32,973 bases of DNA from Terrimesophilobacter sp. (GCA_039925105.1 JBDSZO010000089.1:1-32973), one strand, 5' to 3'; positions 6,338-31,228 are shown, counted from the stretch's first letter. Notes: generated from the sequence alone by a model not told the origin. Made by a program: numbers and translations.

Positions 6338-6383
6338 ACGCTATCGGGAGCGGCGATCGGGCTCGACCCCCAGAACTGAGGAC
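6338..6383 (-). promoter_or_regulatory. 18-bp box plus -10 promoter of NERD copy 1
   Basis: Box 6366-6383 (minus: GTCCTCAGTTCTGGGGGT), 22-nt spacer, TAGCGT (6343-6338). Confidence 0.65.
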
Positions 6384-6433
6384 GCTCCAACGGGGGCAGA
6401 AGCCCCCAGCGAACTGAAGCGAGCACGTACAAT

Positions 6434-6480
6434 CGCTCACGAAAATGGGACTTGCGAATCTCGAAAAATCGGCGCAGGCT
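6434..6480 (+). promoter_or_regulatory. Weaker 18-bp box plus -10, pointing at an intergenic hairpin
   Basis: CGCTCACGAAAATGGGAC (6434-6451), 23-nt spacer, CAGGCT (6475-6480). Confidence 0.35.
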
Positions 6481-6488
6481 TGAGGAAG

Positions 6489-6546
6489 ATCAACTCGTCG
6501 CCCGGAAGAGCCGCACCAAGTGCCGCACCGGGCGATGAGTCTTGAT
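6489..6546 (+). other. Long intergenic hairpin (candidate small RNA, or terminator of the acyl-CoA dehydrogenase gene)
   Basis: ACTCGTCGCCCGG (6493-6505) pairs with CCGGGCGATGAGT (6528-6540), with one G-U pair on the + strand. Inner GCAC/GTGC stem and outer ATCA/TGAT. Confidence 0.45.
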
Positions 6547-6580
6547 AAGGGCCTTTCTCTCGCGTTCAGGTCTCCCGTGT

Positions 6581-7744
6581 TCAGTCCTCGAGCGGCCATT
6601 CCTCCAGGGGCCCGAGCAGATCTTGAGCGACCGTGGCGTGGGCTGAGTCTTCGCTGCTGGGATGAAAGCCGCCCGCCAGCACATCCCGGTACAGCCGCCC
6701 GAGCTCGTTTTCGGCAAAGAATGTTGACCCTCCGCCGACCTTCACCGCCTGGTTCACGACATATTGTGCCATCTGGGTCGCACGAAGCTTGAGCCCGACC
6801 AGCGCACGGAACCAGGATAAGCCGCGGTCGACGGCCTCATCGATGTCGCGGGCGACGGATGCCAGATCCGCAATCACAGGGTCGAGGGCGAGCGCCGCGT
6901 CAGCAATCTTCCACCGCACGTCAGGATCGAGTCTGGCTGGCCTGCCGCCATTCTTGACCGAAGTCCGACGGTTCGCCGCATCGACAGCCAATACAAGGGC
7001 CCGCTGCCCAATACCCGTGTACACGGCAGCAACAAGCGTTTCGAAATTGGCGAAAATGGCAAAAATTAGCGAATCCGCATTTGGTCCAGGTTCCAGGCGC
7101 CGAAAAACCCGGCCCGGCTCCGCACGAACAGCATCGAGGCGAGTGCTGTTACTCTGCGAGGCTCGCATACCGATCGTGTTCCAGTCGTCCGCGACCGTAA
7201 TTCCGTCGGCTCCGCGCTCAATGACCGCATGGACAAGTTTTGGTGCGTCAACGGATGTCGAATCCAGCCCGAATAAACCGAGCCTCGTCCAGACCGGTGA
7301 AAGGCTGGTGAAAATTTTTGTACCGGTGAAACGGTAACCACCATCGGGCTCCGGCACCGCGTTTGTGTGACTGCCGAACAGGACAAGATCGTTGCCTGCC
7401 TCGCTGATGGCGAGCGCAAAAATTTCCCCTGCGGCAGCTTCGCGCAGTACAAAATCGAGCGAATCATCCCCCCGATCGTGCAGGGTCTTTGCCACCCCCG
7501 TCCACACCAGGTGCATGTTGACGGCGAGAGCGGTTGCGGGTGCAGCGGCCGCCAGACGTTGCTGTTCGCGCACCACGGTCAGCAAAGAGTGTCCGGCACC
7601 GCCGAACTCTGCTGGGATGAGTGCCGTGAGATATCCGGCTTCAGCAAGCTCAGCGACATCCTCAGAACAAAACGTGTTCGTGCTGTCGTAGCTGACAGCG
7701 CGGGAATGAATTCGGTCAAGCAGTTCTTCGCTGAGAATGGTCAC
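6581..7744 (-). CDS. Acyl-CoA dehydrogenase-family flavoprotein
   Basis: IPAEFGGAG, FTGTKIFTSL, DDWNTIGMRASQS, VGGGSTF...LGRLYRDVLAG. Substrate cannot be assigned. Confidence 0.9.
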   Translation of the reverse strand: MTILSEELLDRIHSRAVSYDSTNTFCSEDVAELAEAGYLTALIPAEFGGAGHSLLTVVREQQRLAAAAPATALAVNMHLVWTGVAKTLHDRGDDSLDFVLREAAAGEIFALAISEAGNDLVLFGSHTNAVPEPDGGYRFTGTKIFTSLSPVWTRLGLFGLDSTSVDAPKLVHAVIERGADGITVADDWNTIGMRASQSNSTRLDAVRAEPGRVFRRLEPGPNADSLIFAIFANFETLVAAVYTGIGQRALVLAVDAANRRTSVKNGGRPARLDPDVRWKIADAALALDPVIADLASVARDIDEAVDRGLSWFRALVGLKLRATQMAQYVVNQAVKVGGGSTFFAENELGRLYRDVLAGGFHPSSEDSAHATVAQDLLGPLEEWPLED

Positions 7745-7812
7745 TTACCAAGAATGCCACCTGCCTGCCGTTGCTACCCCACATCGTTGTCGATGACGGA
7801 TACAGTTCCCTC

Positions 7813-8783
7813 GTGACCGCATTGGATCTTCGAGGGCTATCCGCTCCGGTGTCGAAGGATGAACTCAAGGCGTTCCGTCGCCAGAATGCGTTTGGCACCG
7901 AACTGATTTTCCGCGTGTTCCTCGGAGTCATCGTTGTGCTGGCCGCGGCAATGATGATGGTGTTTCTGCTGGACTCTTCTGCGACCGGACCCGACCTAAC
8001 AGGCACAGGTACGAACGGCATCGGTCGGGCGATAGTTGTGGTGATCGTCGTGATCGCTGTCAGCGCGGGATTCCTGGTGCTTGGCGAACTGAATTCACGA
8101 ATGATCTGGCGGCGGCGGTACCGGATCAGCCAGTTCGCCGGCAACAACGGTCTCGTCTTCGCGATGCGCACGGGCGGACCGCCCTATCCTGGAATAATTT
8201 TCACTCTGGGCAACAACCAGGCGGTCACCGAGCAGCTGTTCAGCGTGGGTGAGAAACAACTCGACATCGGCAACTACCGTTACACGACCGGTTCGGGTAA
8301 GAACAAGAAGACCCATACCTGGGGCTACGTCGCCATCAAACTTGAGCGCAAACTACCGCACATGGTGCTGGATGCTCGCTCCAACAACTTTCTCGGATCG
8401 AATCTGCCAACAGCGTTATCGCGGGACCAGATTTTGAAGCTCGAAGGAGACTTCGACCGGCACTTTACGCTTTACTGCCCACAACAATATGAGACCGATG
8501 CGCTCTACATTTTCACCCCCGACCTTATGGCGCTCTTCATCGACGAAGCGACACGGTGGGAAAAAAGACCCGCGATCGCTCCGAACGTTATGCGGACTCA
8601 AGGCTCGCCCCGGTCGGCACAACGCCAGCGGTCAACACCAGCGTGCCACGCCAAACTGTCGACATGATTGCCCCGAGTGGTCAACGTCTCACCAAGGGCA
8701 TACCGATAGTTGGGTTCATCATTGTCGGCGTGATTGGCGTGGTCATGCTGGTCAACTTTTTGCCTCTGTTTCGAATTTTTTAG
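7813..8783 (+). pseudogene. Membrane protein apparently disrupted by a frameshift near 8550
   Basis: Two N-terminal TMs and the conserved-looking LEGDFDRHFTLYCP..YE.DALYIFTPDLMALFIDE, then an atypical tail. The -1 frame continues DTVGKKTRDRSERYAD...IAPSGQRL plus a TM helix to 8783. Leaderless GTG 7813 (TACAGT 6 nt upstream). Confidence 0.55.
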
Positions 8784-8800
8784 CGCGTGTGAGAAGGCTC

Positions 8801-11035
8801 TTACTCCGCTGGCGACGGGAGCCCATCGGGCAGCTTCTCAGTGCTGACCATCACCAGGCGCTGGGTCGGTCGGGTCATCGCGACATAGAGCGCGGCGGCG
8901 CCCCGAGCGCTCGCCGCAACGATGCGCGCAGGCTCGACAATGACAACGGAGTCAAACTCCAACCCCTTTGCCTCCTGGGCCGTCATCACCGCAATATCCG
9001 AGGTGAGTGCATCGGATCCATGGCCGACTCGATCGCCGAAAACCTGCTGGAGTGCTTCTGTCGCGCTGGCAACATCCTCATCAACAGCGATCACGGCCAT
9101 CGTGCCCGGCACCTCAAGCGCCTTGTGTGCAGCCTCGACGACATTCGAGACGACCTCGAGTGGCCACTGGCCTGGGCGCACGGAGCTTGCCAAAGTTACC
9201 GGCAGGCCGTGGGCGACCGCCATCGAATCGGCGGCGGCCGCGATCCGTCCTGGCGTGCGGTAGTTCACCGTGAGTTCTTCACGCCGGATCCAATCCTCGG
9301 TGTGTCGCTCACCAACCAGTGGCGTCAGCGCGTGTTCCCAAGTTTCCGCAGCCGACGCCGCAGCGGCCTGTGCAATATCGCCGACGATGGTGAAAGACCT
9401 ACCAGGACCCCGGCGTTGCAGCAAACGCCACTGCATCGGTGAAAGTTCCTGCGCCTCGTCAACGACAATGTGACCGTAAGCCCAGCGCCGATCTGACGCC
9501 GCGCGCTCGGCAGTTGTGCCGGCATCCGCGAATTCGGCAAAACCACTCGCGAGCGACTTTGCGTCGACAATTCCAGAAACGCCCATGTTTTCGATCGCCT
9601 GTTCCGCGTTCTCCACGTCGCGTGCTCGCTGCAACTTTGCTTCACGGCGGACCGCAGCATCGCTCACGCTCGCCTCACCCAGCAACTCGGCGGCCTCATC
9701 CAGCAGTGGAATATCCGAAATGGTGAACGCCGCCCCGCGCCCCCGCTGTACCAACGCGCGCTCCTCTGCACTCCAGTCCGGAGTCAACTCGGCCAGCCAG
9801 TGCGGCCTTGCATACAGGTCTGCCACCAGTTTCTGCGGCGTCAACGGCAACCACGCCGTGTTCAACGCAACCCGCACATCGCTTGAGGTTCGCAGATCCT
9901 CGCGCAGAAGCGCCTGGTCAGACTCATCGATCGAGTTGCCGTTCTCGCGCAACTGCGCAACCAATTGCCTGGTCAATGCGGTCAATGCTGCCTTTACAAA
10001 AATGACTCGCGCCTGGTTGTAAGGCTTGCCGGAGTCACGGGCCCTGCTCATGGCGTTGGCAACGAGAGCGGGGTCGAGCGTGACGCGTTCTCCGTTAACG
10101 TCCAGGTCTTGCGGTTCTGCAGGAATCCGTTGGCGCGACCGAACCGCACGCGCCAGGAGCGCCGCCATCCTGGCGTCACCCTTGAGCACTGCCACCTCGC
10201 TGACATCGTCGGTGGTCGCTTCAACCCCGGGGAACAGCGAACCAAGGCTGGCCAGAACGACGCCGGACTCCCCGAGTGACGGCAAAACCGATTCAATGTA
10301 GCGAAGGAATGAACGGGACGGGCCAACGATGAGCACGCCACTCGACCGCAGTCGCTCACGGTGCGAGTACAGCAGGAACGCTGCTCGATGCAGCGCCACC
10401 GCAGTTTTGCCAGTGCCGGGCCCACCCTGGACCACGAGAACGCCGCGAAGGTCAGACCGGATGATGCGGTCCTGCTCCGCCTGGATGGTGGCGACAATGT
10501 CCGACATCCGTCCGGTACGCTGCGCGGACAGGGCAGCCAACAGTGCGCCCTCCCCCTGCAACTGGACGGTCGGCTCCGTAAGAAGTTCAGAGTCGAAGAT
10601 CTCATCCTCGATACGGATCAGTTTTCGTCCGCTCGAAATCAGGTGACGACGTGCGCGTGTACCCATCGGCGTCTTTGCGGTTGCCTGATAGAACGCGCTC
10701 GCCCGCGGGACACGCCAGTCGAGCAAAAGCGGTTGCTGATCCGCATCGCGCAATCCGATCCGCCCGATGTATCGGTGGATGCTCTGCCCGTCGTCACCCA
10801 GCACGTCGAGGCGCCCAAACGCCAGACGCTCACCAACCTCACGCAACTGGCCGAGACGGTCTTCGTAGAGGCGAGCGAAACTGTCGCGTTCACTTCTGGC
10901 CTGGTGTCCACCGCCAACGCTTTGGCTTCTGATCTCGGAGAGCTGGGCTTCAGTCTCATCCTGAAGCTCGTCGAGCCGCTGATACAGCGCGCCAATGTAC
11001 TCGCGCTCGCGATCGAGTTCGCTTAATCCCACCAA
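8801..11035 (-). CDS. helD: HelD-family SF1 helicase-like ATPase (RNA polymerase recycling type)
   Basis: YIGRIGL...LLLDWRVP, GRMSDIVATIQAEQDRIIR, Walker A GGPGTGKT, VVDEAQE, VGDIAQ, LTVNYRTP, KGLEFDSV, LYVAMTR. Confidence 0.85.
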   Translation of the reverse strand: MVGLSELDREREYIGALYQRLDELQDETEAQLSEIRSQSVGGGHQARSERDSFARLYEDRLGQLREVGERLAFGRLDVLGDDGQSIHRYIGRIGLRDADQQPLLLDWRVPRASAFYQATAKTPMGTRARRHLISSGRKLIRIEDEIFDSELLTEPTVQLQGEGALLAALSAQRTGRMSDIVATIQAEQDRIIRSDLRGVLVVQGGPGTGKTAVALHRAAFLLYSHRERLRSSGVLIVGPSRSFLRYIESVLPSLGESGVVLASLGSLFPGVEATTDDVSEVAVLKGDARMAALLARAVRSRQRIPAEPQDLDVNGERVTLDPALVANAMSRARDSGKPYNQARVIFVKAALTALTRQLVAQLRENGNSIDESDQALLREDLRTSSDVRVALNTAWLPLTPQKLVADLYARPHWLAELTPDWSAEERALVQRGRGAAFTISDIPLLDEAAELLGEASVSDAAVRREAKLQRARDVENAEQAIENMGVSGIVDAKSLASGFAEFADAGTTAERAASDRRWAYGHIVVDEAQELSPMQWRLLQRRGPGRSFTIVGDIAQAAAASAAETWEHALTPLVGERHTEDWIRREELTVNYRTPGRIAAAADSMAVAHGLPVTLASSVRPGQWPLEVVSNVVEAAHKALEVPGTMAVIAVDEDVASATEALQQVFGDRVGHGSDALTSDIAVMTAQEAKGLEFDSVVIVEPARIVAASARGAAALYVAMTRPTQRLVMVSTEKLPDGLPSPAE

Positions 11036-11076
11036 GACTCACATCCCTTGAAATTCGGACACGCAAGTCTATCGGG

Positions 11077-11880
11077 TTACTCGGATTGGGTTTCCTGCCC
11101 CTGTTGCTCACGCAGGATTGCCAACGCTCGGGAGACCCGCTCGGTCAGACCGCTCACTTTGCGCGGAGCCTTACGCTCGAGATCGTCCAAAACCACTATC
11201 GCTTCTGCCCGCAACTTGGCGTGCACAGCGTTGAGGGCAAGATTTCGGGCCAGGGAGATGCGCGCACCGGCAAACGCGAGCCAACCGGTGATCGCCAGCG
11301 GAACAACAAAGACTATGGGCGCCCACATCGGAGCTTCGCCGAGTGTCGCCAGCCACACGATTGCCGCAAGGTCGAGAAGTGCAAGGAGCGGCGGAATAGC
11401 GCGGACGAACCTTCCCAGTGCAACACGTTTGCTCAGGTCGTTCTGGCGGGCGTCGAGGGTCTCGACCCACCGTCGATAATCAGCGAGCCTCCCGCGCGAC
11501 ATGCGGATCGCTGGCAGCGCCCGAAGTTCGTCGCGGATCACCTGATAGCCGGTGAGTGGTCGGCGCAGGGCTCGCGCGGCCAGAAGTGCAACGACTGCAG
11601 CCAGTGCGCTCAGCGCAACCAGCAGCAGCAGTCCGGACAGCGGCTCGCTGTTACCGATCAGGAAAACCGCAAAATTTACACCAACGATGAGCGTAACCGC
11701 GGCGATCGAGCAGAGGGTGATAGTCCAGGCGAGACCGCGATCGCGATCCCGGGACCCGGCGGCGCGCCCGGCCCGGCGCACCTGGTGGCCCGTGACAACA
11801 TCCACAAGTTGAAGCATTAATCCGAGAGCAAACGCGCTTGTCACAATCGTGACGAAAACGCCCAGTGTCGTTGAGTTCAT
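11077..11880 (-). CDS. Hypothetical integral membrane protein (about 5 TM)
   Basis: 267-aa ORF filling the gap, GGGAG RBS, several long hydrophobic segments, no recognisable family motif. Confidence 0.75.
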   Translation of the reverse strand: MNSTTLGVFVTIVTSAFALGLMLQLVDVVTGHQVRRAGRAAGSRDRDRGLAWTITLCSIAAVTLIVGVNFAVFLIGNSEPLSGLLLLVALSALAAVVALLAARALRRPLTGYQVIRDELRALPAIRMSRGRLADYRRWVETLDARQNDLSKRVALGRFVRAIPPLLALLDLAAIVWLATLGEAPMWAPIVFVVPLAITGWLAFAGARISLARNLALNAVHAKLRAEAIVVLDDLERKAPRKVSGLTERVSRALAILREQQGQETQSE

Positions 11881-11902
11881 GGCAGCTCCCTTGCCTGCAG
11901 GC

Positions 11903-13261
11903 CTAAAAGACCTTGCCTGGGTTCAGTATCCCCTGTGGATCGAAAACGTGCTTGATCTGACGTTGCAATTCGAGTTGGGTTGATCCGAGTTCGTCGCCCA
12001 ACCACCGCTTCTTCAGTACCCCGACACCGTGTTCACCGGTCAAGGTACCGCCCATCCGGATGGCGGCCGCAAACAGTTCCCCGGCGGCGTCCCACACGAT
12101 CTGCGGAATTTCGGGTGTGTCTACGAGGAAGTTGGGGTGCAGATTCCCGTCGCCAGCGTGTGCGACCGTCGGAATGCTGAGACCAAACTTCTTTTCGAGC
12201 ACAGCAATCGCTGCGAACATCTCCGGCAGGCGACTGCGTGGGACCGCGACGTCCTCAATGAGTACCGTCCCTCTCGCTGCCAACGCCGGATGGAACGAGC
12301 GTCGAACGGCCAACAGCCGCTCCCCCTGCTGCTCATCCATGCTCACTTCGACGGTGCCGCGATGAGATCGGAGGATGCTGGCGATCTTGTTCGCCTCGGT
12401 CGCACTCTCCGAACCATCGCATTGGGCGAGGAGGTAGCCCTGGCCTTGTGACGAAAGGTCAAGCCCGAGGTACTCGTCGATGAGCTGAAGACTTGTCGAA
12501 TCCAGGAGCTCCAAAACGGCCGGGGTCAGACCGGACGCGGTGATCGCGGCCGCAGCGTGGGCGGCAGAATCAACATTCGGAAATAGTGCGCTGAGCGTCG
12601 CTCTCGGACCTTTCGGAATCGGCAGCAACCGCAGGGTTGCGTCGACGACAACGCCGAGGGTCCCCTCCGAACCGATCATGAGCGCGGTCAGGTCAAGGCC
12701 TGTCACGCCTTTCACCGTGCGGTGACCTATTCGCATGACGTCACCGGAAGCCAAAACCACCGTGAGACCGAGTACCGCTTCGCGCGTCACACCGTACTTG
12801 GCACAAAGCAATCCGCCAGCGTTGGTCGCGATATTCCCGCCGATGGTTGAAATTGCCCGGCTTGCCGGATCCGGTGCGAACCAGAGACCGTGCTTACTCA
12901 GCGAATCGTTGAAGTCTCCGTTCAAGATCCCCGGCTCAACTACCGCAAGCTGGTCTTCAACCGAAAGCTCCAGAACGCGGTTCATCCTTCGCAGTGAAAG
13001 AACTATCTCACCCGTTGACCCGGTTCCACCGCCGGCAAGTCCTGTGCCGGCGCCACGCGGAACAACCGGCACCGAATGTTGAGACGCTATGCGCAAGACT
13101 GCTTGGACATCCGAGATCGTTCTCGCGCTGACGACGGCAAGCGGTATGCCGGAAGAACGGTAACCCGATTGGTCACTGCGTGCATCCTCGAGCGCCACGG
13201 CTCCGGTGGCAACTTTCGATCCGAGTTCGGCGCGAAGATGCCGCAACGCGACGTCGGTCAT
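11903..13261 (-). CDS. FAD-linked oxidase (GlcD / D-lactate dehydrogenase-like)
   Basis: VVPRGAGTGLAGG, PDPAS, GGNIATNAGG, GSEGTLGVV, AHAGDGNLHP, GEHGVG, DPQGILNPGK. ATGA overlap with the ribokinase stop. Confidence 0.93.
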   Translation of the reverse strand: MTDVALRHLRAELGSKVATGAVALEDARSDQSGYRSSGIPLAVVSARTISDVQAVLRIASQHSVPVVPRGAGTGLAGGGTGSTGEIVLSLRRMNRVLELSVEDQLAVVEPGILNGDFNDSLSKHGLWFAPDPASRAISTIGGNIATNAGGLLCAKYGVTREAVLGLTVVLASGDVMRIGHRTVKGVTGLDLTALMIGSEGTLGVVVDATLRLLPIPKGPRATLSALFPNVDSAAHAAAAITASGLTPAVLELLDSTSLQLIDEYLGLDLSSQGQGYLLAQCDGSESATEANKIASILRSHRGTVEVSMDEQQGERLLAVRRSFHPALAARGTVLIEDVAVPRSRLPEMFAAIAVLEKKFGLSIPTVAHAGDGNLHPNFLVDTPEIPQIVWDAAGELFAAAIRMGGTLTGEHGVGVLKKRWLGDELGSTQLELQRQIKHVFDPQGILNPGKVF

Positions 13262-18806: not shown

Positions 18807-18824
18807 ACCCCGTGTACTGGGGGA
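18807..18824. promoter_or_regulatory. 18-bp box between divergent pit and DUF2510 copy 1
   Basis: ACCCCGTGTACTGGGGGA. It lies 33 nt upstream of TAAGCT (18858-18863, +) and 21 nt from TACGCT (18785-18780, -). Confidence 0.5.
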
Positions 18825-18903
18825 AGACAGAGTATTCTCTTTCACCCCCAACCGCACTAAGCTTCTCGCGTAGCCAAGCTGACATGATTGCGGGGATCGC
18901 TTC

Positions 18904-20217
18904 TTGGATGACAACAGTTTTTATGGTGCACCGGCGGGCTGGTATCCGGATCCGCTGGGGCTCCCTCAGTTGCGCTGGTGGGACAGCACAGCGTGGACAC
19001 ATCAGACCGCGGAGGCTCGAGCCCCCATGGTCATGCAGGAGACCACTTTTGCCTGGCCGGAAGATGAACTCGACAACGACGAGGGACTGCCGACGCGCCG
19101 CGAGCGACGCGAGCAGGAGCGGCGCGACCACCTTGACACACCGATGCCCACCGCGTTGACGCTTCTGGAGTTGGAGCCACCGTCGATCGACGAGGTCCAG
19201 GAGCCCGCCACGGTGCCGGCGCAGGAATCGCTCGTCAGTTCTTTAGCTGAATCCAGCTTTGAGTCGCCATCGACCCCACAATCGGTATTCAGCCCAGAAT
19301 TTGACGGCGGTTCGGGGTTTGCCGCCACTGTACCTGTGGCGGAACCTCTCGTTGAGCCGCTCATCGAACCCGAATTCGTCGAGGACAGCGACGACGACCT
19401 TACAGAGACAGACCTTCCGTTCCCCCTGGCCGCGAAACGTGCCACATCCCTTCAGGACCGACCGGACAGTGACGCCAACTCACCCGCGCAAGCAGGTGAC
19501 CATTCTTTCGATTGGTCACGACAGGACAGTCCGCAGGTCGAAGGCTCCTCCCGTGCTACTTTCCTGCCCCAAGAGGCGTCAAGCCCGGTACGGGTTGCCG
19601 CCGTACCAAGCAAGGGAACCCACAACGCGGCCGTGTGGATGATTGCGCTCATTCCGCTCATGCAACTCGTCGTCAGTCTGCTCATGCTGACCGCCCTTGG
19701 CGCCGCCGTCCCGTCAGTCGCCATGGTCGCCATTTGGCTCGTCCCCTACCCGCTGGTGGTGATTCTTGCTACGGTCGACCGCGCCCTGTTGAAACGCAGT
19801 GGACACGAAAAGACCGCCCATTGGCTCTGGGCCCTGCTGACCGCCCCGATTTACCTCATCGTGCGCGCCGTGGCAAGCATTCGAGAGTCCGGCGGCGGAT
19901 TTGGCCCAATCCTGGTGTGGGCTGTGCTCGGACTGCTCCACCTCGCATCCATCGTCGCGGTGCCAGGATTGCTCATTTCGGCGGTTCCCACCTTGTTCGC
20001 CCAACAGGCGCAGCAGTCCATTGTTTCGGATGCCGCCATCATCGGAACCGATTTGAAGGTTTCCTGCCCTGCGCCCGCTGTGCTGGTCGGCCAAACGTTC
20101 ACCTGCGCTGGCATAACGTCGGCCGACAAGAAACTGAGTATTGACGTGAGTCTCCAGAGGGTCAACGGCTGGATTGACTGGCGCGTCGACGACTGGGGAA
20201 TTTACACCCTCGGTTAG
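18904..20217 (+). CDS. DUF2510 membrane protein, copy 1 (with DUF4333-like C-terminal domain)
   Basis: APAGWYPDP..LRWWD..AWT, acidic linker, about 4 TM, C-terminal VSCP...GQTFTC two-Cys domain. TTG start. Confidence 0.85.
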   Translation: MDDNSFYGAPAGWYPDPLGLPQLRWWDSTAWTHQTAEARAPMVMQETTFAWPEDELDNDEGLPTRRERREQERRDHLDTPMPTALTLLELEPPSIDEVQEPATVPAQESLVSSLAESSFESPSTPQSVFSPEFDGGSGFAATVPVAEPLVEPLIEPEFVEDSDDDLTETDLPFPLAAKRATSLQDRPDSDANSPAQAGDHSFDWSRQDSPQVEGSSRATFLPQEASSPVRVAAVPSKGTHNAAVWMIALIPLMQLVVSLLMLTALGAAVPSVAMVAIWLVPYPLVVILATVDRALLKRSGHEKTAHWLWALLTAPIYLIVRAVASIRESGGGFGPILVWAVLGLLHLASIVAVPGLLISAVPTLFAQQAQQSIVSDAAIIGTDLKVSCPAPAVLVGQTFTCAGITSADKKLSIDVSLQRVNGWIDWRVDDWGIYTLG

Positions 20218-22995: not shown

Positions 22996-23030
22996 CTGCC
23001 CTGACCGAACTTCCCTGACCGAGCTGCCGA

Positions 23031-24344
23031 CTATTCCCCCGGTGCCGCGCCAAGAGCCGTTCGAGCTACCGCGTGCCTCGCCGCGAACTCGGCCTGGGAT
23101 TCAGGATCCAACCGACGGGCGCGCCAAGGTGCACTGTTGTCGGCAATATCGGCGAGCTTCACCGCGCGAGCGATGGGATCCGCGTTGATTGCCGCATAGT
23201 AGTCAACATCCGACACGTCGCTGCGGCGAGTGAGCACCGAAACAATCGAGACAATTTCCGGACGGATCCCTGCCTCGCGCAGATCCTGCTCCGTGATGTC
23301 ACTGTCCTCCATCACGCTATGCAGCCAGGCAGCAGCGTGATGGATGGGTTCGTTTCGCCAATCGAAACGCTCGGCAACGCGTGCCGGATGGTCAATGTAC
23401 GCGGCACCGATTCGGTCCAGTTGACCGCGGTGCGCGATAGTCGCCAACGCCGAGGCGATACCCTGCTGGGCCCTCGCGTCAGACTCTGGCATGGGGCTCG
23501 GGTTGATCACCGCCACATCCATCGGTGGGGCACTGTGTGCTGGCGGAGCGACTGGCGCTGGTGCCGACACTGGTGCCGGTGCTGTCTTCGACTCGGCGAC
23601 AGTCACGGGCGGTGCGAAAGGATAAGGTGCGGAGACGGGTGCCGGTGCTGAGGCATGCGCCTCAACTGGTTCCGCCACATGGGCCGACATTGTGCGAGCG
23701 CCCGCCAGCACCGGCTCCATGGTTTCGGGGGCCGGCATCGCGGCGTGCGCACCAAAACGGGCCTCGAAATGTTCCATCGACCACTGCTCGTTCTGAACTG
23801 GAACGTCAGTAATGGTTGCTCCTGGCTGGTATTGCTCCAACTGGGCGTCCTCCACTTCAGAGAAGTGGGTGTCGAGGTCATCGCGCACGTACAGGAATCC
23901 ACTTTGCCCAATTTCCACCCAGGTGTTTGTGAGCCATTGGAAGTAGCGGCGACGTCCTGCAATCGTCACGGCAGTGAAAACGCCCACAACGTGGAAGCCA
24001 TTGTCGGTAACCCGGGTGTAGTAGCGTTGCGCGTCGTCGACGCGGCCAATTGGCGGCACCGACTGCTCTTCGTTGAACGTGGAGTCCACGAACCGATCAA
24101 AGTTGAACTGAGGAGCAACCCGCGCCACAAGGTGATCTCCGGCGTGCGCCAGGGTGATCTCGCGGAGCACCGTCAACTGCTCGACACTGGCATCAGGCCA
24201 TTCGAGTGCATCACCTGCCGCAGTCAATTGTGCGCGGCTCAGAATGGGATGCGAAAGCCACTGCGCTTCCGGCACGTCCACAGGCGGCAGTGTTTGGGTT
24301 TCAATGGACCCGTTTCCGGGCACACCGACGTTGTAGTCGATCAT
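23031..24344 (-). CDS. Unknown N-terminal domain, Pro/Ala linker and C-terminal RelA/SpoT-type HD (small alarmone hydrolase-like) domain
   Basis: AHRGQLD..G..YIDHP.RVA...AAWLHSVMEDS...VLTR...ARAVKLADIADN. ATG 24344 with AGGTGG RBS. Confidence 0.8.
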   Translation of the reverse strand: MIDYNVGVPGNGSIETQTLPPVDVPEAQWLSHPILSRAQLTAAGDALEWPDASVEQLTVLREITLAHAGDHLVARVAPQFNFDRFVDSTFNEEQSVPPIGRVDDAQRYYTRVTDNGFHVVGVFTAVTIAGRRRYFQWLTNTWVEIGQSGFLYVRDDLDTHFSEVEDAQLEQYQPGATITDVPVQNEQWSMEHFEARFGAHAAMPAPETMEPVLAGARTMSAHVAEPVEAHASAPAPVSAPYPFAPPVTVAESKTAPAPVSAPAPVAPPAHSAPPMDVAVINPSPMPESDARAQQGIASALATIAHRGQLDRIGAAYIDHPARVAERFDWRNEPIHHAAAWLHSVMEDSDITEQDLREAGIRPEIVSIVSVLTRRSDVSDVDYYAAINADPIARAVKLADIADNSAPWRARRLDPESQAEFAARHAVARTALGAAPGE

Positions 24345-24419
24345 CGTACGTCCACCTAATTTCGGGTATGTCGCGCTAGGACGCGACAGATGGATATTGC
24401 TTGAGTTCTCGTCGAGTCC

Positions 24420-24465
24420 AGAATAGAACTTTCCCCAGGGAAATGCCGACCCCATCCACTGCGAG
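24420..24465 (-). promoter_or_regulatory. Half-conserved 18-bp box plus -10 promoter of the HD-fusion gene
   Basis: Minus: CTCGCAGTGGATGGGGTC (24465-24448), 22-nt spacer, TATTCT (24425-24420). Confidence 0.45.
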
Positions 24466-24616
24466 AATCTCTTGCCCCGACCCTAGAACAACCGTTATAC
24501 CGGTCGCACCACCCAGTTCAAGGGTCATAGATCGACCTGTCGGTCTTCGCCCGCCAGACTCAGAATCGTGTGTGCAGACTCCTAGCAGACGAGTTGACAG
24601 TTACCGCCAACGTTGT

Positions 24617-24634
24617 ACACCCCATTTATGGGAC
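24617..24634 (+). promoter_or_regulatory. 18-bp box upstream of the DUF898 gene
   Basis: ACACCCCATTTATGGGAC, 24 nt before a non-consensus TAGACC that lies 6 nt before ATG 24671. Confidence 0.45.
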
Positions 24635-24670
24635 TCGCATTAGTCACCACGATCGCGCTAGACCTAGAAC

Positions 24671-25036
24671 ATGCCCTCAGTACGCACCCGATTCACCTTC
24701 GATGGAGGCGCCGCAAGCTACTTCGGTACTGCCGTGCTCGGACTTCTCATTACCGTGCTCACACTTGGTATCTGCTACCCGTTTGCGCTCGTTCTCATCG
24801 AGCGTTGGCGCTGCGCGCACACCTACATTGACGGGCAGCAACTGGTGTTCACTGGCAGCGCTGTCGGCCTCTTCGGACTGTGGATCAAATGGCTGTTTCT
24901 GAGCATCATTACCGTCGGCATTTACCTGTTTTGGGTTGCGCCTCGAGTGCAGGCGTGGAAAACGGTGAACACGGGCTTTGCCGTACCGGTCGCGCCACTG
25001 TCATCCTGGGCACCGAACATTCTTCAGGCCAGCTGA
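24671..25036 (+). CDS. DUF898 (YjgN-like) small membrane protein
   Basis: FTFDGGA..YF...LITVLTLGICYP...HTYIDG..LVFTGS...WLFLSIITVGIY.FW internal repeat pattern. Confidence 0.85.
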   Translation: MPSVRTRFTFDGGAASYFGTAVLGLLITVLTLGICYPFALVLIERWRCAHTYIDGQQLVFTGSAVGLFGLWIKWLFLSIITVGIYLFWVAPRVQAWKTVNTGFAVPVAPLSSWAPNILQAS

Positions 25037-25095
25037 CCGACAAACATCTGCGCGTAAACGACAGAGGTGCGATAGTTGTCGGGCGAGGTGTAGCG

Positions 25096-25446: not shown

Positions 25447-25467
25447 CTTGCGCCTGCGGAAAGCGAG

Positions 25468-26289
25468 TCAAACGAACAGGTTGCTCAAAAACTGACCGAC
25501 CACTGGCGCGCTGACCAATGCGGCGATCGCTGTCGCGGAAATCGCGAGTGCAGCCCAGGATACTCGTAACCGCCGGGCGGTTCGCACCTCCCGGTGCAGT
25601 GCATCGAATTGCTGTTGCAGCATCCGAGCGTTGGACGACGCTGCCGGGTGCGTGTGCCAGGTGGCCGGGTCCGCAGCGACCATCGCGATCAGTGCGACCT
25701 GATGCGGGGCGAGAACGACTGGCTGAGTGCGGAGCCAACGGACGAGGTTGTGTGCGTCCAGGACCCGCACGAACCGCGGCAGTTCTTTTACCGTGACCGA
25801 CTTGGGGTCGACGAACGCGAGGACGGGTGTCACGTCGACGGACGCCGGGAGAACGCGTGACAGGCTGATGGTGGCGCGCTCAGCCTCGTATTCAGAATTA
25901 CGCATATACGGCATTGTGTGTCCGGCGACCGTAAGGGAGCGCGCGCCTACCGCAATGGGTTGGCCGGCATGGTGTTTGGTGTTGACGGTGAACACACCGC
26001 ACGGACCGATGATGATGTGGTCGACATCTGAGATGCCGGTACCGATGGGCACTGAGTGAAGGACCGTCCATCGATTGTCGAGGCTGGCCAGCATCCGACC
26101 GGTGATGCTTTCGCCGACCGCACCGACGTACCACGCCTGTTCGTCGCGGGTAAGCGGCGAGATGCCGAGCACGCGCGCAAGAGTACCGCGGGGCGGGGTA
26201 TCGGCGCGTGAGCGCAGGAGCTCTTCCATGACCGCACGGCCTGCGATTCGCTCGACCAGATCGTTTTCCACGATGTCCCCCGACAACAT
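25468..26289 (-). CDS. NERD protein with C-terminal TM helix, copy 2
   Basis: WYVGAVGE...WTVLHSVPIG...DVDHIIIGPCGVFTVNTKHH and a hydrophobic C-terminus. ATG 26289 with GGGAG RBS. Confidence 0.87.
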   Translation of the reverse strand: MLSGDIVENDLVERIAGRAVMEELLRSRADTPPRGTLARVLGISPLTRDEQAWYVGAVGESITGRMLASLDNRWTVLHSVPIGTGISDVDHIIIGPCGVFTVNTKHHAGQPIAVGARSLTVAGHTMPYMRNSEYEAERATISLSRVLPASVDVTPVLAFVDPKSVTVKELPRFVRVLDAHNLVRWLRTQPVVLAPHQVALIAMVAADPATWHTHPAASSNARMLQQQFDALHREVRTARRLRVSWAALAISATAIAALVSAPVVGQFLSNLFV

Positions 26290-26318
26290 GTCTTGCTCTC
26301 CCTGAATAGTGTTCCTTG

Positions 26319-26365
26319 ACTCTGCCTGTAATGCGTGGTATTTGGCAGTCCCCACTTCGCGGGTG
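26319..26365 (-). promoter_or_regulatory. 18-bp box plus -10 promoter of NERD copy 2
   Basis: Minus: CACCCGCGAAGTGGGGAC (26365-26348), 23-nt spacer, CAGAGT (26324-26319). Confidence 0.65.
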
Positions 26366-26420
26366 GGTTGGCTTGTCCACGGCAGCAAGTCGACGGTGAC
26401 TGACGTTTAGGCTTATTGAT

Positions 26421-27086
26421 ATGAATCATCTGGAATCTAATGCGTCACCGGGCAATTCGATCGATGCGAACGCGGTGTTGTGGAATTTACCTCCGGCGGA
26501 GCGGGTTGGCAAGCCGCTGCTGGTGATGATGCACGGGCTGGGCAGCCACGAGGGCGACTTGTTCGGGTTGAACCGGTTCCTGCCTCCGGGGCTCGTGGTG
26601 GCATCGCTCCGTGCGCCGCTTGCCTACGATGGCGGGTTTGCCTGGTTTCAGGCTGGTGAGCAGGGTGGAACCGACACGACGTTGCTGGATGGGTCGGTGC
26701 AGGGAGTATTGGGCTGGGTCGACCGCCTCGAGGTGGCGCCGACGAGCGTTGCCCTGATGGGGTTTTCCCAGGGTGGTTGTATGGCGCTGCAACTCGTCCG
26801 ACAGGCGCCGGAACGCTTCGCCTACGTCCTGCAGCTCAGTGGTTTCGTCGCAAACTCGGCGCATCCCGGTGATGCGGCGCTGGCCGCGCGGGTGCCACGT
26901 ATGCCGGTGTTCTGGGCTCACGGTGATCAGGATGACGTGATCGCGCTGGAATCGGTTGACCGCACACGGCGTTGGCTGGACGAACACACAACTGTGCAGG
27001 CACATCGATATCCAATGGCGCACACGGTCAGCCAGGAGGAACTGGCCGACCTTGTGGACTTCGTTGCGGCGCGGTCGGCGAACTGA
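26421..27086 (+). CDS. Alpha/beta hydrolase (phospholipase/carboxylesterase family)
   Basis: MHGLGS, nucleophile elbow GFSQGG, HGDQDDVI, MAHTVS. Confidence 0.92.
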   Translation: MNHLESNASPGNSIDANAVLWNLPPAERVGKPLLVMMHGLGSHEGDLFGLNRFLPPGLVVASLRAPLAYDGGFAWFQAGEQGGTDTTLLDGSVQGVLGWVDRLEVAPTSVALMGFSQGGCMALQLVRQAPERFAYVLQLSGFVANSAHPGDAALAARVPRMPVFWAHGDQDDVIALESVDRTRRWLDEHTTVQAHRYPMAHTVSQEELADLVDFVAARSAN

Positions 27087-27123
27087 ACGGCGCACGCACT
27101 AAACGGAATCGCCGCGCACGAAA

Positions 27124-27915
27124 CTAGTCCAGCTCGACCGGCTGGAACCAGGGTGGATACACCGCAATCTTGGGGCTGAACTCGCTGGCACGCAACAACT
27201 CACGCACCTGACCGCGCGCCTTATCGTTGGCGACACCAACCAACGAGATTGACCCCATCGGAAACGAATCCTGCACCAATAACTCGGCCACCAACTCGCG
27301 GCCCTCATCCAGCCTCGGCAGGCGAACCGCTTTTCCGTCCACGACGGTGAACCGCGCCACTGTTGCCGCGGCATCATCGTCGGCGAGCACCACACCACCA
27401 GAAGCCAGCTCGCTTTTAGCAATCTGGCCCATCGTGCTCACCAACATCACAAACTCCCCCGCCGGCAATTTCTGTGCCGCGGGGGCTAGACGCTCATCGG
27501 CAGCGCCCGCAAGCGCGCCAGCCCACAACTCGGCATGAGGCACCAGGAAGAACGGAACGAAACTGGCAACGCTCTCGCCGGACGACACCGCCGCTGCACG
27601 ACGCCGCGCCCGGTTTTCGACCGACGACAAATCCACCACAGGCAGCGCGCCGCGAGCGTCCGCCTGAATACAACCTGCAGAGAGGATGCCGGGAAGATTG
27701 CGCAGGTGCGTCACATGGAATATGCGCTTCGTACCCGGATCGACTGTCGTTGCCTTCTCGCTGAGCAAAGGCGCACGCCGAGTCGGCGGCTTTCGCCGAG
27801 GCGACCTACTTCTTGTCAGACTTGGGGATGTCGTGCCAGAAACAACAGGCACCACCTTCGGCGTGCACTGGTCGCACAGCTCCGCCACCAGACCATGAAT
27901 ACAATCGTCGGTCAC
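27124..27915 (-). CDS. DarT-like (DUF4433) ADP-ribosyltransferase-family protein with N-terminal Cys/His motif
   Basis: IFHVTHLRNLPGIL, RARR, FVPFFL, AELLV..SFP, terminal VYPPWF. N-terminus DDCIHGL...CDQC. Confidence 0.78.
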   Translation of the reverse strand: MTDDCIHGLVAELCDQCTPKVVPVVSGTTSPSLTRSRSPRRKPPTRRAPLLSEKATTVDPGTKRIFHVTHLRNLPGILSAGCIQADARGALPVVDLSSVENRARRRAAAVSSGESVASFVPFFLVPHAELWAGALAGAADERLAPAAQKLPAGEFVMLVSTMGQIAKSELASGGVVLADDDAAATVARFTVVDGKAVRLPRLDEGRELVAELLVQDSFPMGSISLVGVANDKARGQVRELLRASEFSPKIAVYPPWFQPVELD

Positions 27916-27940
27916 GTGGGCCTCTCGTCGGTAGTGCTAC

Positions 27941-27958
27941 CCCCCACGTTACGGGGAA
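27941..27958. promoter_or_regulatory. 18-bp box just upstream of the DarT-like gene
   Basis: CCCCCACGTTACGGGGAA, 25 nt from the GTG start. No -10 at the 22-nt spacing. Confidence 0.4.
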
Positions 27959-28035
27959 TCGGCATCGAGCGGATACGATCCTCGACTCTGACCCGGCTCT
28001 TCCCGCCTTTTCGGACCACGACCGCACCGGGAACG

Positions 28036-28115
28036 GTAACCACAAGTGGGGGCGAACTCTGGCCACGTTTACCCGCGAACTGGGGACTGTCAAGTCGAAC
28101 GAAGTTCAATAGCGT
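28036..28115 (+). promoter_or_regulatory. Tandem 18-bp boxes plus -10 promoter of DUF2510 copy 2
   Basis: GTAACCACAAGTGGGGGC (28036-28053) and TACCCGCGAACTGGGGAC (28070-28087), 22-nt spacer, TAGCGT (28110-28115). Confidence 0.68.
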
Positions 28116-28177
28116 CTCTAGTGGGGATATCGAGTTGCGCGGGGGGCGCAGCCGATTTCCATGAAAGGGGGGGGTAC

Positions 28178-28978
28178 ATGTCACTCGACACCATGACCCC
28201 TGCCGCGACGCGCCAGGGCACTCATTCCGCAGGCACAGCCATCACAAGCTCAGGAACAGACAGAGCGGACTTCACAAACCCGGAGTTTGAACAGATCCAG
28301 CAAACGGCGCAGATCATCATCGCCGGCTGGTATCCGGATCCATCCGACGTTGAATCACTCCGTTGGTGGGATGGCGCCACCTGGACGGCAGAGGTTAAAG
28401 AGCGTCGCCCGATCACAGCACCAACGGCCATCGCCAAGCCCACAGGATCAACCAATGCTTTCCCGCCGGTCGCGATCCGCGCCGACGCAAGCCTGCCGCC
28501 CATCGACCCGTACCGTCCGAGAGATCGACACGAGCATGACACCTACGTGCCGATGGCCTCACTTTCCAATAACCTCCGGCTCGGACCCACCCACACCTAC
28601 ACGGCGTCCGTGTGGTGGCTGGCAACCCTGCCAGTCTGGTCAACGGCTATCGTTGTGGCACTCGTTGTCGGTCTCGGTTCGTTCTACTCGGGCTTCCTGC
28701 AACTGTTCACGGCACTGATCGTGTTGTTCATTTCCGCAGCGATCACCATCCATGACCGTAAAGTTTTGCTCGCCGACAACCACCCGACCGCAGCATCCAC
28801 ACTGTGGTTCCTTTTGTCACCGTTGGCCTACCTGATCGCCCGCGGAGTGCACGTTCACCGCTCGATGGGCCGCGGATGGGCTCCGGTCGTTATGTACTTG
28901 ATCTGCTCTGTCGTTCCAGCCGCGGCGGTCATATCGATCACCTTCCTGCTGACCCTCGCAGTCAACTTCCTTCGCTGA
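28178..28978 (+). CDS. DUF2510 membrane protein, copy 2
   Basis: AGWYPDP....LRWWDGATWT and an about 4-TM C-terminal domain. ATG 28178. Confidence 0.85.
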   Translation: MSLDTMTPAATRQGTHSAGTAITSSGTDRADFTNPEFEQIQQTAQIIIAGWYPDPSDVESLRWWDGATWTAEVKERRPITAPTAIAKPTGSTNAFPPVAIRADASLPPIDPYRPRDRHEHDTYVPMASLSNNLRLGPTHTYTASVWWLATLPVWSTAIVVALVVGLGSFYSGFLQLFTALIVLFISAAITIHDRKVLLADNHPTAASTLWFLLSPLAYLIARGVHVHRSMGRGWAPVVMYLICSVVPAAAVISITFLLTLAVNFLR

Positions 28979-29042
28979 CCGCTCAGGAGTTCGCGATCCG
29001 CACCCCTCGGCGCCGCGACGCAACCCGGCCTACGCTGGAAAC

Positions 29043-29537
29043 ATGCAGCTGAGCACTATTGCCCTGACCACCATCGACGGGACCCATACCACCTTCGGCG
29101 ACTATGTCGGTGGTGCCGTGTTGGTCGTCAATGTAGCCTCCAAGTGCGGATTCACTCCGCAGTACGCCGGACTGCAGGAACTGTATGAGCGCTACGGTGA
29201 GCGCGGATTGAGCGTCCTCGGGTTCCCGTGCAACCAATTCAAAGGCCAGGAACCGGGCAGTTCAGAAGCCATTCAGGAGTTCTGCTCCGTGAACTTTGGC
29301 GTCACATTCCCCCTGTTCGCCAAAGTGGATGTCAACGGCGAAAGCCAACACCCGCTCTTCACACAACTCACGCAGGCCGCAGACGACAACGGCAAGGCCG
29401 GACCAATCAAATGGAACTTCGAAAAGTTTCTGGTGTCCTCCTCCGGAGACGTACGCCGATTTCGCAGCATGACGAAACCAAGCTCACAGCGGATCACCGG
29501 TGCGATCGAGGATGCGCTCGCGTCGTCAGTGGCTTAA
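29043..29537 (+). CDS. Glutathione peroxidase family (Cys-type)
   Basis: VVNVASKCGFTPQY, LGFPCNQF..QEPG, IKWNFEKFLV. Confidence 0.95.
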   Translation: MQLSTIALTTIDGTHTTFGDYVGGAVLVVNVASKCGFTPQYAGLQELYERYGERGLSVLGFPCNQFKGQEPGSSEAIQEFCSVNFGVTFPLFAKVDVNGESQHPLFTQLTQAADDNGKAGPIKWNFEKFLVSSSGDVRRFRSMTKPSSQRITGAIEDALASSVA

Positions 29538-30124
29538 GGCATCTTTTTCTGCGGGTACGGCAACTCGTGCCTTACAAGCTGTTCGACGAATCCCGCGATC
29601 TTGCGTTGGCGCGCTGCAGCAGTCTTCAGCTGGCTCAACCGAAAGTACAGTGCGAAACGATTCTGCGACGTCAACACGTCGTACATGGCTTGCGCCTTCG
29701 GCGCCGCAGCAATCGCGGCCAACAGGTCGGCCGGCGCCTCGGCTGTTGCCGGACCCGTGTACGCTCGCTCCCATCTGCCATCCGCCTTCGCTGCCTCCAC
29801 CGCCGCCCACCCGGCCGGCTGCATGCGACCCTCGGAATCGAGCCGGGTGATGTGGTCGACGTTGCGGAGCGACCACATGCTGCGCGGCCCACGCGGTTGG
29901 AAACGCTGGAACGTGCTCTGCTCATCCCGACGCCCCGCCTGGGCGTCGATCCACCCGACGCACAGCGCCTCATCGAGCGCATCGACATAGAACAACGCCG
30001 TTACTGAGCCACCCTTTCGAGACAGGATGAGCCGCACGCCAGGCGAGGAATCATGATGACGCTGAAGCCAGCTCCGCCACTCGTCAGCATCGGCAACAAG
30101 AAGCTCAGGAAATTCGGTGGGCAT
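29534..30124 (-). CDS. YdeI/OmdA-family protein
   Basis: WRSWL..HH, ALDEALCVGWID, PR.PRSMWS..N, GRMQPAG, APADL..AI, TAAARQRKI. Start moved to ATG 30124. Confidence 0.88.
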   Translation of the reverse strand: MPTEFPELLVADADEWRSWLQRHHDSSPGVRLILSRKGGSVTALFYVDALDEALCVGWIDAQAGRRDEQSTFQRFQPRGPRSMWSLRNVDHITRLDSEGRMQPAGWAAVEAAKADGRWERAYTGPATAEAPADLLAAIAAAPKAQAMYDVLTSQNRFALYFRLSQLKTAAARQRKIAGFVEQLVRHELPYPQKKMP

Positions 30125-30221
30125 ACGCCAGAGTATCGAGTGCCACTGACCCTCGTACCACTTGGCGTCGCTACTCGTTGGTTTCGCAGCGGCCAGCCCA
30201 AGCGGTAGGTAGGCTTGAATC

Positions 30222-30506
30222 ATGAGCAGGGAACTCGCCAACAACACCGAGACCAACCGCTATACGCTGCACATCGACGGCAGCCTGGCCAGCGCGGTTG
30301 ACTACCAGATCCGCGGAAAATCGATCTCGTTCACCCATACCTTCACCGACACGAAACGTCGCGGCCAGGGACTCGCCGGCGAAATAGTCGAGTTTGCCGT
30401 CGACGATGTTGAAAATAACACGGACTTCCGCATCGTTCCGATGTGCTGGTACGTCGGCGAATGGTTCGACAAGCATCCGGAGCGTTCAGAGCTGCTCACT
30501 CGGTAA
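30222..30506 (+). CDS. Small GNAT-family N-acetyltransferase (YjdJ-like)
   Basis: FTHTFTD...RGQGLA, IVPMCWYV..WFDKHPE. Confidence 0.88.
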   Translation: MSRELANNTETNRYTLHIDGSLASAVDYQIRGKSISFTHTFTDTKRRGQGLAGEIVEFAVDDVENNTDFRIVPMCWYVGEWFDKHPERSELLTR

Positions 30507-30524
30507 CCACTGCGTCAGCTCTAC

Positions 30525-30926
30525 TCAGGCAGTCATCAGGTCAAGCAGAGCTCGAGCGTAAGCATCCGCCGCATTATCGGCAGTGTCGAAATGCGCCAAC
30601 CCGCCGGCATAGGCGATCTCCACCCGAAAAACCGAACCGACCATTGTCAGGGATCGGAAAGAATCGCCGAGAAGTTCCCGCATCTGATCCTCACGGGGTA
30701 ACCACAGGGCGTTCTCCAGCGCCACAGAATCCAACGCCCACTCCGTCGTGCCGTTGAAACCCAGAATGGTCCCGGTGTCGAAGGTGTGGGCCTCGATGGT
30801 CATGTCGCTCACCGTGAACACTTCAGAGGCAAGCTCCGGCGACTCGATGACAAACATGTCACCAGAGACAGGTGCCCACGCCAAACCGGCACCACGCAGC
30901 AGGCGGGCGCACTCAAAGGAAATCAC
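30525..30926 (-). CDS. Conserved actinobacterial hypothetical protein
   Basis: AGL.W.P.SGD.F, FTVSDMTIE, LGFNGTTEWALDSV, ALWLPREDQ.RELLG motifs. No function can be supported. Confidence 0.78.
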   Translation of the reverse strand: MISFECARLLRGAGLAWAPVSGDMFVIESPELASEVFTVSDMTIEAHTFDTGTILGFNGTTEWALDSVALENALWLPREDQMRELLGDSFRSLTMVGSVFRVEIAYAGGLAHFDTADNAADAYARALLDLMTA

Positions 30927-31088
30927 ACCACAATGTTCCCAGCGTCACCTGAATCCCTCCCCAGAGGATCGGACCACCTCAGGCGAAGAAGAAAACAATT
31001 GTGCGTTCCTGCCGCGAATGCCCCTGAGAAGGTGGAGTTCATACCAGCCTCCGGCGCAACATCTTCGGCACTCGACGCGACGAAAATG

Positions 31089-31228
31089 CCGCGCTGGATC
31101 GGGGACGGCCGGGTGGCGTCAAAAATTGTCCCCCGGCAATCCCTGGACTTGTCCCCCATATTCGGTAGCCTCAATTGGCGACACCCCCACCAAAGGGAAC
31201 GGTTGTGCTCGGCATGACTCCCTAGACT
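31089..31228 (+). promoter_or_regulatory. Cluster of 18-bp boxes plus -10 promoter of DUF2510 copy 3
   Basis: Half-sites GGGGAC (31101-31106) and GTCCCC (31128-31133); boxes GTCCCCCATATTCGGTAG (31151-31168) and ACCCCCACCAAAGGGAAC (31183-31200); 22-nt spacer; TAGACT (31223-31228). Confidence 0.65.

Follow-up and report, generated by a model that had tools for sequence, protein, structure and literature searches.

The window analysed here is a contig of 32,973 bp (JBDSZO010000089.1:1-32973, contig C89) from the genome assembly of a Terrimesophilobacter sp. (GCA_039925105.1, here G000; 61% G+C, 63% complete). Dispersed over the window, the promoters of several unrelated genes carry a palindromic box of the form CCCC-N6-GGGG. 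The box is real, is conserved in relatives and stands at a fixed distance from predicted -10 elements, and the window genes very likely form a shared regulon with the type IVa pilus. Judging from the sequence comparisons described below, the palindrome is likely bound by a single activator that acts as a dimer. This is probably RR-A, a NarL-type regulator, and it would co-induce the type IVa pilus together with DUF2510, NERD, DUF898 and HD genes. The regulon is family-wide in the Microbacteriaceae and apparently undescribed; its mechanism is of a known kind, and its regulator is a candidate only. The literature that we searched, with subscription papers and supplements beyond reach, held no description of this regulon or of the control of type IVa pili in Microbacteriaceae, and no paper on DUF2510. 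Type IVa pili occur in 49 of 90 Microbacteriaceae genomes surveyed (one per genus), and the finding supplies a site, a promoter layout, a candidate regulator and a target list for them. It also places DUF2510 and membrane-anchored NERD proteins in a functional context for the first time.

Sequence and conservation of the box

Ten same-genus genomes are syntenic with the window region, and Pfam confirms two NERD, three DUF2510 and one DUF898 gene in the window. Genes were called with a hexamer model, so that start positions are approximate. The original prediction placed an 18-bp box before these six genes and the HD fusion gene. Each of the seven 18-mers is found where it was put, as is its -10 hexamer, and six of the sites hold, but the HD site was misplaced: the stretch at 24448-24465 falls within the predicted leader, and the site that is conserved is at 24508-24525. 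The motif itself stands, but its symmetric core spans only 14 bp and the outer bases are variable.

De novo expectation maximization (EM) was applied to 55 upstream regions, drawn from 10 relatives of the same genus and not from G000 itself. It returned the box upstream of the orthologues of the window genes, as ACCCCAGAATTGGGGCTC (14.2 bits), with CCCCA-N4-TGGGG as the symmetrised core. With this relatives-only matrix, the intergenic DNA of G000 contains 26 sites scoring at least 12, against 5.8±2.1 in 30 dinucleotide shuffles. The control set, consisting of orthologue upstream regions of 22 other genes from the same relatives (n=168), reached a score of at least 10 only once, in a region divergent from DUF2510-1. 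Leaving out one gene at a time, 47 of the 55 training regions were recovered at a score of at least 8 and 35 at 10 or more; recovery was weakest for DUF898 (3/7). Counting 4-mer inverted dyads in G000 intergenic DNA gave CCCC-N6-GGGG and CCCC-N5-GGGG 19 times each (3.0 expected), which ranks them 3rd and 4th among all such dyads; the reversed order, GGGG-N6-CCCC, occurs three times. Two dyads are stronger in the same DNA, GGTC-N11-GACC (26 against 3.9 expected) and TCGA-N5-TCGA (29 against 6.0).

The sites and genes of the regulon in the window are listed below. Box centres are given relative to predicted transcription starts, computed with the -10 element beginning at -12 and anchored on the DUF898 ATG.

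5423..6310, minus strand: NERD-1 gene; NERD domain, one predicted C-terminal membrane helix; start codon uncertain
6365..6382, minus strand: NERD-1 box; core 6368-6381; centre about -43.5; -10 TAGCGT at 6338-6343; 21 nt spacing in 9/9 orthologues
18808..18825, plus strand: DUF2510-1 box; centre about -54.5; -10 TAAGCT at 18858-18863; 10/10 orthologues
18904..20217, plus strand: DUF2510-1 gene; membrane protein
23031..24344, minus strand: HD fusion gene; weak RelA/SpoT-type HD match
24508..24525, minus strand: conserved HD box; centre about -44.5; -10 TAGGGT at 24480-24485; 5/5 orthologues examined
24619..24636, plus strand: DUF898 box; -10 TAGACC at 24659-24664; centre -44.5, taking the ATG at 24671 as +1 (transcript predicted to be leaderless)
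24671..25036, plus strand: DUF898 gene; small membrane protein, two predicted membrane helices
25468..26289, minus strand: NERD-2 gene; NERD domain, one predicted C-terminal membrane helix
26347..26364, minus strand: NERD-2 box; centre about -44.5; -10 CAGAGT at 26319-26324; orthologue L002 scores 11.7
28037..28054, plus strand: upstream box of DUF2510-2; weaker (score 8.1); 34 bp upstream of the other DUF2510-2 box; centre about -77.5
28071..28088, plus strand: DUF2510-2 box; centre about -43.5; -10 TAGCGT at 28110-28115; 9/9 orthologues
28178..28978, plus strand: DUF2510-2 gene; membrane protein
31184..31201, plus strand: DUF2510-3 box; centre about -43.5; -10 TAGACT at 31223-31228; degenerate second box near 31153-31168
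31275..32789, plus strand: DUF2510-3 gene; membrane protein

The DUF2510-3 site of G000 is weak (below 7.5 with the relatives-only matrix, 8.2 with a refined one); the sites of its orthologues are strong. About 20 bp upstream of the NERD-1 box, a TGCCCCCG half-site is conserved in most relatives. The HD motif of the fusion protein reads HS in the G000 copy and HD in the three orthologues displayed, and the G000 copy may be inactive.

Promoter geometry

The spacing between box and -10 element proved fixed in the relatives. TAnnn(T/A) follows the box in 47 of the 55 regions, 37 times at 21-22 nt and 10 times at 31-33 nt (two ranges were searched). Among the 26 G000 sites, TAnnnT is found at 20-23 nt in four and at 31-34 nt in three, and at neither of two control spacings in any. 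Across the whole genome, the spacing signal stands out at high scores only (at 18 or more, 8 in G017 against 1 and 2 at control spacings, and 6 against 3 in G000) and weakens as the score drops, which indicates that the regulon is small. The simple pattern GGGG(A/T)C plus a -10 element gave no genome-wide spacing peak.

The DUF2510-1 box had been placed one helical turn further out, and it is carried there by 10/10 orthologues. Second boxes had been proposed upstream of DUF2510-2 and DUF2510-3: that of DUF2510-2 is present and weaker than the first, and that of DUF2510-3 is degenerate. No conserved -35 element lies between box and -10, and the -10 elements of the targets are of the housekeeping TAnnnT type. 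A dyad abutting the -35 region and common to unrelated genes, the layout of a class II activator, fits all tests run. Counted from the predicted -10 elements, the inverted repeat abuts the -35 region near -44, as at NarL/FixJ class II promoters, and the optional in-phase second site about 33 bp upstream is found 32-34 bp away at pilA. From this geometry we infer activation and co-induction.

The box at type IVa pilus promoters

The idea of a cell-surface programme finds support in the promoters of pilB and pilA, which carry the same box. The type IVa pilus cluster of the same-genus genome G017 lies between rpoC and rpsL and has a box at pilB and at the major pilin. It encodes PilB with an MshEN domain, a second T2SSE ATPase in the position expected of PilT, an N-methyl pilin, an A24 peptidase and PilM. 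The pilB of G000 (contig C134) has the same site as its G017 counterpart; pilD, pilM and minor pilins are on C22, and the pilin gene is not in the assembly.

A matrix built from window-gene orthologues alone, and thus blind to pilus genes, finds a box plus -10 at a score of at least 10 in 29 of 32 Microbacteriaceae pilB promoters, against 4/32 and 7/32 at control spacings and a background of 23 of 707 G017 upstream regions. The genera include Leifsonella, Rhodoglobus, Salinibacterium, Cryobacterium, Glaciihabitans, Lacisediminihabitans, Frigoribacterium and Pseudolysinimonas, and the position of the box is constant across genera though the flanks diverge. Before the major pilin, 9 of 10 same-genus promoters whose upstream stretch was cut correctly have a box scoring 10 or more. 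So does G020, and none of seven same-order genomes has one (G016, cut on the wrong side, was left out of this test, and the G035 stretch may fall short of the pilin promoter). Two or more boxes are found at 18 of 20 pilA loci and are 32-34 bp apart in 19 of 20 intervals; this count used a matrix that included pilA sites and left out the outgroups and three loci with no intergenic region before the first pilin. A strict tandem pattern has 10 distinct sites in 8 of the 90 genomes, none of them more than about 6 kb from pilB, and one control match.

Comparison of 549 G000/G017 orthologue pairs extends the list of targets. Both promoters are boxed at a score of at least 8 in 10 pairs, 7 of them outside the training genes (1.6 expected), and at 10 or above in 7 pairs, 4 of them outside (0.4 expected). 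The boxed pairs include acs, a TetR-like gene, a third NERD gene, the genes of an alpha/beta hydrolase and a putative secreted protein, and a GDSL hydrolase gene together with the small membrane protein gene divergent from it. A fourth DUF2510 gene (DUF2510-4, G000:C95) is preceded by tandem boxes. PilB was found in the 49 pilus-bearing genomes as a core clade (44) or a divergent form (5), and all 21 genomes with a DUF2510-1 orthologue are among the 44, an association that kinship inflates. Further candidate boxes in G000 (C142, C90:12540, C326, C99:1701, C257:1047) precede sugar-transferase-like, alternate-signal-peptide and S8-peptidase-like genes and small membrane proteins, as labelled by eye.

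DUF2510 is predicted to fold into a small Trp-rich three-stranded sheet (predicted local distance difference test, pLDDT, 83). It has no significant structural match, and an Atlas search gave DUF2510 clusters only. The PilT-like ATPase encoded after pilB (L229, L242, L248, L254) has a long proline-rich N-terminal extension, and a peptide-binding link between this extension and the modelled DUF2510 sheet is conceivable. Major-pilin leaders (L201-L210, L236-L238) share a conserved stretch GGGGGTC...GGGGGCCCTGTCC...GACAGGA, in which a CCTGTC/GACAGG stem is predicted over the ribosome-binding site. Several pilin or pilB promoters outside the family (L214-L219, L243, L251) show a CTCA...GCCGA-like element that by eye resembles the sigma-28 consensus, which suggests a regulator swap.

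A candidate activator

The original prediction saw no obvious gene for the factor in the window. A factor encoded outside it fits all tests run, and the best candidate is RR-A on contig C12. G000 encodes a clade of four NarL-type regulators, to which RR-A belongs.

G000:C12:1916-2536: RR-A; NarL/LuxR helix-turn-helix (HTH) plus receiver

Ahead of the RR-A gene lie genes for a MacS-like kinase and for another membrane protein, to which no family could be matched. RR-A orthologues (68-93% identity) are present at E<1e-80 in 64 of the 90 genomes, among them every one of the 44 that carry core-clade PilB. The five genomes with divergent PilB lack RR-A, and their pilB upstream stretches are boxless (0/5). 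In G103, where RR-A is the sole clade member, a box with its -10 element lies at pilB and another 5 kb further downstream. The RR-A operon itself is preceded by a box in G017 and G019. Of 46 metagenome loci, 14 have one there as well, where shuffled sequence gives 1.3 (80 loci were collected, and 34 dropped as duplicates or for too little upstream DNA). The box-plus--10 pattern occurs 131 times against 82 control matches in the 64 RR-A-positive genomes and 17 times against 36 in the 26 RR-A-negative ones. Taken together, these data suggest that the box is likely bound by an activator and that this factor is probably a NarL-family dimer; that it is RR-A specifically is about evenly balanced, and RR-A is named here as a candidate.

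As we envisage it, the MacS-like kinase of the RR-A operon would phosphorylate RR-A, and the RR-A dimer (NarL/FixJ family) would bind the CCCC-N6-GGGG box. From about -44 the bound dimer would contact RNA polymerase at a housekeeping-sigma promoter (class II), and added sites at about -54 or -77 would act as class I sites. The tandem box pair would drive the major pilin, RR-A would autoregulate its own operon, and the pilus and window genes would be co-induced as one surface-motility or attachment programme.

Several observations speak against assigning the regulon to RR-A or limit its reach. The RR-A operon box is absent or weak in 32 of the 46 metagenome loci and scores below 7 in G000, and it often stands only some 15 nt ahead of the start codon instead of at -44. 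The counts of the box-plus--10 pattern contain overlapping duplicates in C-runs, and the excess is small (31 against 26) in the 20 genomes that have RR-A and no PilB. The presence of RR-A largely follows one clade, in which kin are non-independent, and the paralogue RR-D has nearly the same profile (43 of 44 core-PilB genomes). Factor profiling across the genomes was confined to NarL-type candidates. Three of the 32 family pilB promoters fall below the cut-off (L237, L254, L256), and one of three outgroup pilB loci passes it (11.3). G000, only 63% complete, is without a pilin gene, and G017 is covered to 86%.

These points bear on the rather unlikely possibility that the same regulon answers to another activator, be it RR-D, a heterodimer of RR-A and a paralogue, or a factor of another family. 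The distribution of RR-D would suit it, as would the retention of RR-A in the 20 PilB-negative genomes and a paralogous kinase-kinase-regulator module that adjoins pilB in two genera (L233:3272-6116, L238:3532-6364) with boxes of its own. However, G103 is boxed and, by the thresholds applied, has neither RR-D nor RR-C. Seven of the 44 core-PilB genomes, box-bearing G020 among them, have no RR-C, and no box was seen before RR-D in G000. RR-C (G000:C309) was rejected as the factor on that distribution. Also rejected were RamA, which has no orthologue (0/5 genomes over the NF041673 cut-off), and a MalT-like LuxR protein of G017 with no clear counterpart in G019 or G000. The module of MacS-like kinase, unrecognised kinase-like membrane partner and NarL-type regulator recurs in G000 (C12:1916-6718, C309:3928-6987, C182:14559-17651).

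Probable motility or attachment rather than competence

The regulon could instead serve natural competence or feeding on DNA, which the pilus would take up and the NERD proteins process. The pilus cluster is of the retractile type, three NERD genes are boxed, comEC and dprA are present in both G000 and G017, and in G017 a box precedes a secreted LTD/endonuclease/5'-nucleotidase gene. A competence regulon would be expected to share one site among comEA/comEC, dprA and the pilus. In the two genomes inspected, G000 and G017, no conserved box precedes comEA/comEC, the yraN-comM-dprA operon or the Tad genes; a single site near yraN-comM-dprA in G017 is absent from G000. The Tad pilus, comEA/comEC and dprA were accordingly rejected as members, and the lack of a conserved box at comEA/comEC and dprA leaves the DNA-uptake programme offered in the original prediction unsupported. 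PD-(D/E)xK nucleases carry (D/E)xK, and at this position NERD-1 has SVR or SVQ and NERD-2 NTK, which makes nuclease activity doubtful. Given boxless competence genes and altered NERD motifs, motility or attachment fits better, and we regard competence as unlikely.

Still less probable is a role of the box as a repressor operator or as an element of an alternative-sigma promoter. CsoR-type operators are also C-run/G-run palindromes, and the RR-A operon sites lie close to the start codon as operators do. Yet the target boxes are upstream of the -35 region and in helical phase (21-23 or 31-33 nt, with tandem boxes 32-34 bp apart), the region between box and -10 has no conserved -35, and the -10 elements are of the housekeeping type. 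Chance runs of C and G, or terminator hairpins, in intergenic DNA of high G+C content, suggested by the low complexity of the motif, the 36 sites scoring at least 12 in G000 coding DNA and the fading of the spacing enrichment at low scores, are refuted by the held-out recovery at pilB and pilA, with the single hit among 168 controls and the fixed position across genera pointing the same way.

A second element in the leaders

Some leaders of the regulon share a sense (A/G)CCCGA(A/G) heptamer: 14 of 32 for pilB, 7/8 for DUF2510-3, 7/7 for DUF2510-4, 6/6 for HD and 1/10 for DUF2510-2. There is one antisense case, and DUF2510-1 leaders have none (0/11); NERD-1 leaders were mostly not delimited in this count. 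The window has two examples.

24361..24367, minus strand: loop ACCCGAA within the predicted HD leader
31243..31257, plus strand: predicted DUF2510-3 leader hairpin CTGA-ACCCGAG-TCAG

The loop is predicted to be unpaired with a probability of 0.75, which falls to 0.44 when the flanks are shuffled. Over 39 distinct occurrences, the mean energy of the enclosing hairpin is -6.8 kcal/mol in its native context; exchanging the left flank for that of an orthologue gives -4.9 and for that of another gene -4.3, a loss expected if the stems co-vary. The stems differ between genomes and still pair (both window examples, pilB leaders L221-L269, and G000:C95), and a MAFFT alignment of 14 pilB leaders places them in shifting register. 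Over the genome as a whole ACCCGAA shows no enrichment (9 sense, 9 antisense), the signal being confined to the regulon leaders, and Rfam gave no match at gathering score in the window, L269, L255 or L055. We infer that the loop is read by a protein or RNA; alternatively, the element may be a DNA half-site resembling the heptamer of the TcrA box.

A tentative and somewhat doubtful extension would make RR-A the master switch for type IVa piliation in the Microbacteriaceae, in place of the sigma-28-type pilin promoters of other Micrococcales. An RNA-binding factor would read the ACCCGA loop in the pilB, DUF2510-3, DUF2510-4 and HD leaders, and the DUF2510 and NERD proteins would be accessory to pilus motility. 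If this holds, the two families are unrecognised accessory parts of pilus-driven motility in actinobacteria.

Other features of the window

One further site in the window, at 27939-27956 on the side of a DarT-like gene, scores 12.5 and was excluded because none of its seven orthologues reaches 10. The DarT-like gene (27124-27915, minus strand) is syntenic in seven relatives and reaches 67 bits against an NCBIfam DarT cut-off of 150. No DarG-like neighbour was noticed in the window, and the gene may be domesticated or inactive. The PadR gene of the window has no box upstream in any of eight relatives. For positions 27900-31400 of the window, no RNA run was listed.

Comparison with known systems

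A close parallel is NarL of E. coli, which according to PMC7419079 activates ogt from 7-2-7 inverted sites at -44.5 and -77.5. The arrangement here resembles that at ogt and yeaR (PMC7419079) in having an inverted repeat upstream of -35 at -44.5 and a tandem site at -77.5. The candidate RR-A likewise has a NarL-type receiver and HTH. However, RR-A falls far under the NarL family cut-off (51.6 against 250 bits), and the targets and the phylum are different. The NarL heptamer is TACYYMT, whereas the half-site of the box is a C4 run.

MacS/MacR of Streptomyces coelicolor is an actinobacterial two-component system of the NarL type and, according to PMC9739842, directly targets membrane proteins. 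The kinase of the RR-A operon has MacS as its best NCBIfam match (1.7e-20), but at 73.5 bits it lies below the cut-off of 300 for membership. Unlike macRS, the RR-A operon has a second, unrecognised kinase-like partner, and its putative targets include a type IVa pilus.

TcrA controls the zoospore pili of Actinoplanes missouriensis. It is a response regulator and global activator acting via an upstream box, a 21-bp direct repeat GCA(A/C)CCG-n4-GCA(A/C)CCG (PMC12691653). The box described here is an inverted repeat of another sequence, and a TcrA regulon was rejected.

RamA of Corynebacterium glutamicum, a LuxR-type regulator, binds A/T/C-GGGG-N and A/T/C-CCCC-N tracts (PMC4847777). Our box is likewise a G/C-tract site and is conserved before acs in G000 and G017. 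The RamA motifs are described there as tracts, whereas the box is a fixed 14-bp palindrome. A search for a RamA orthologue gave best matches to the HTH only, with 0/5 genomes over the cut-off and one control genome passing.

The type IVa pili of Proteobacteria are controlled by PilR of the PilS/PilR system, which acts via sigma-54, and by Vfr, a CRP protein. The regulon described here would resemble them in that a dedicated activator raises transcription of the pilin and pilus-assembly genes, but differs from PilR and Vfr in its housekeeping-type promoters and NarL-like geometry.

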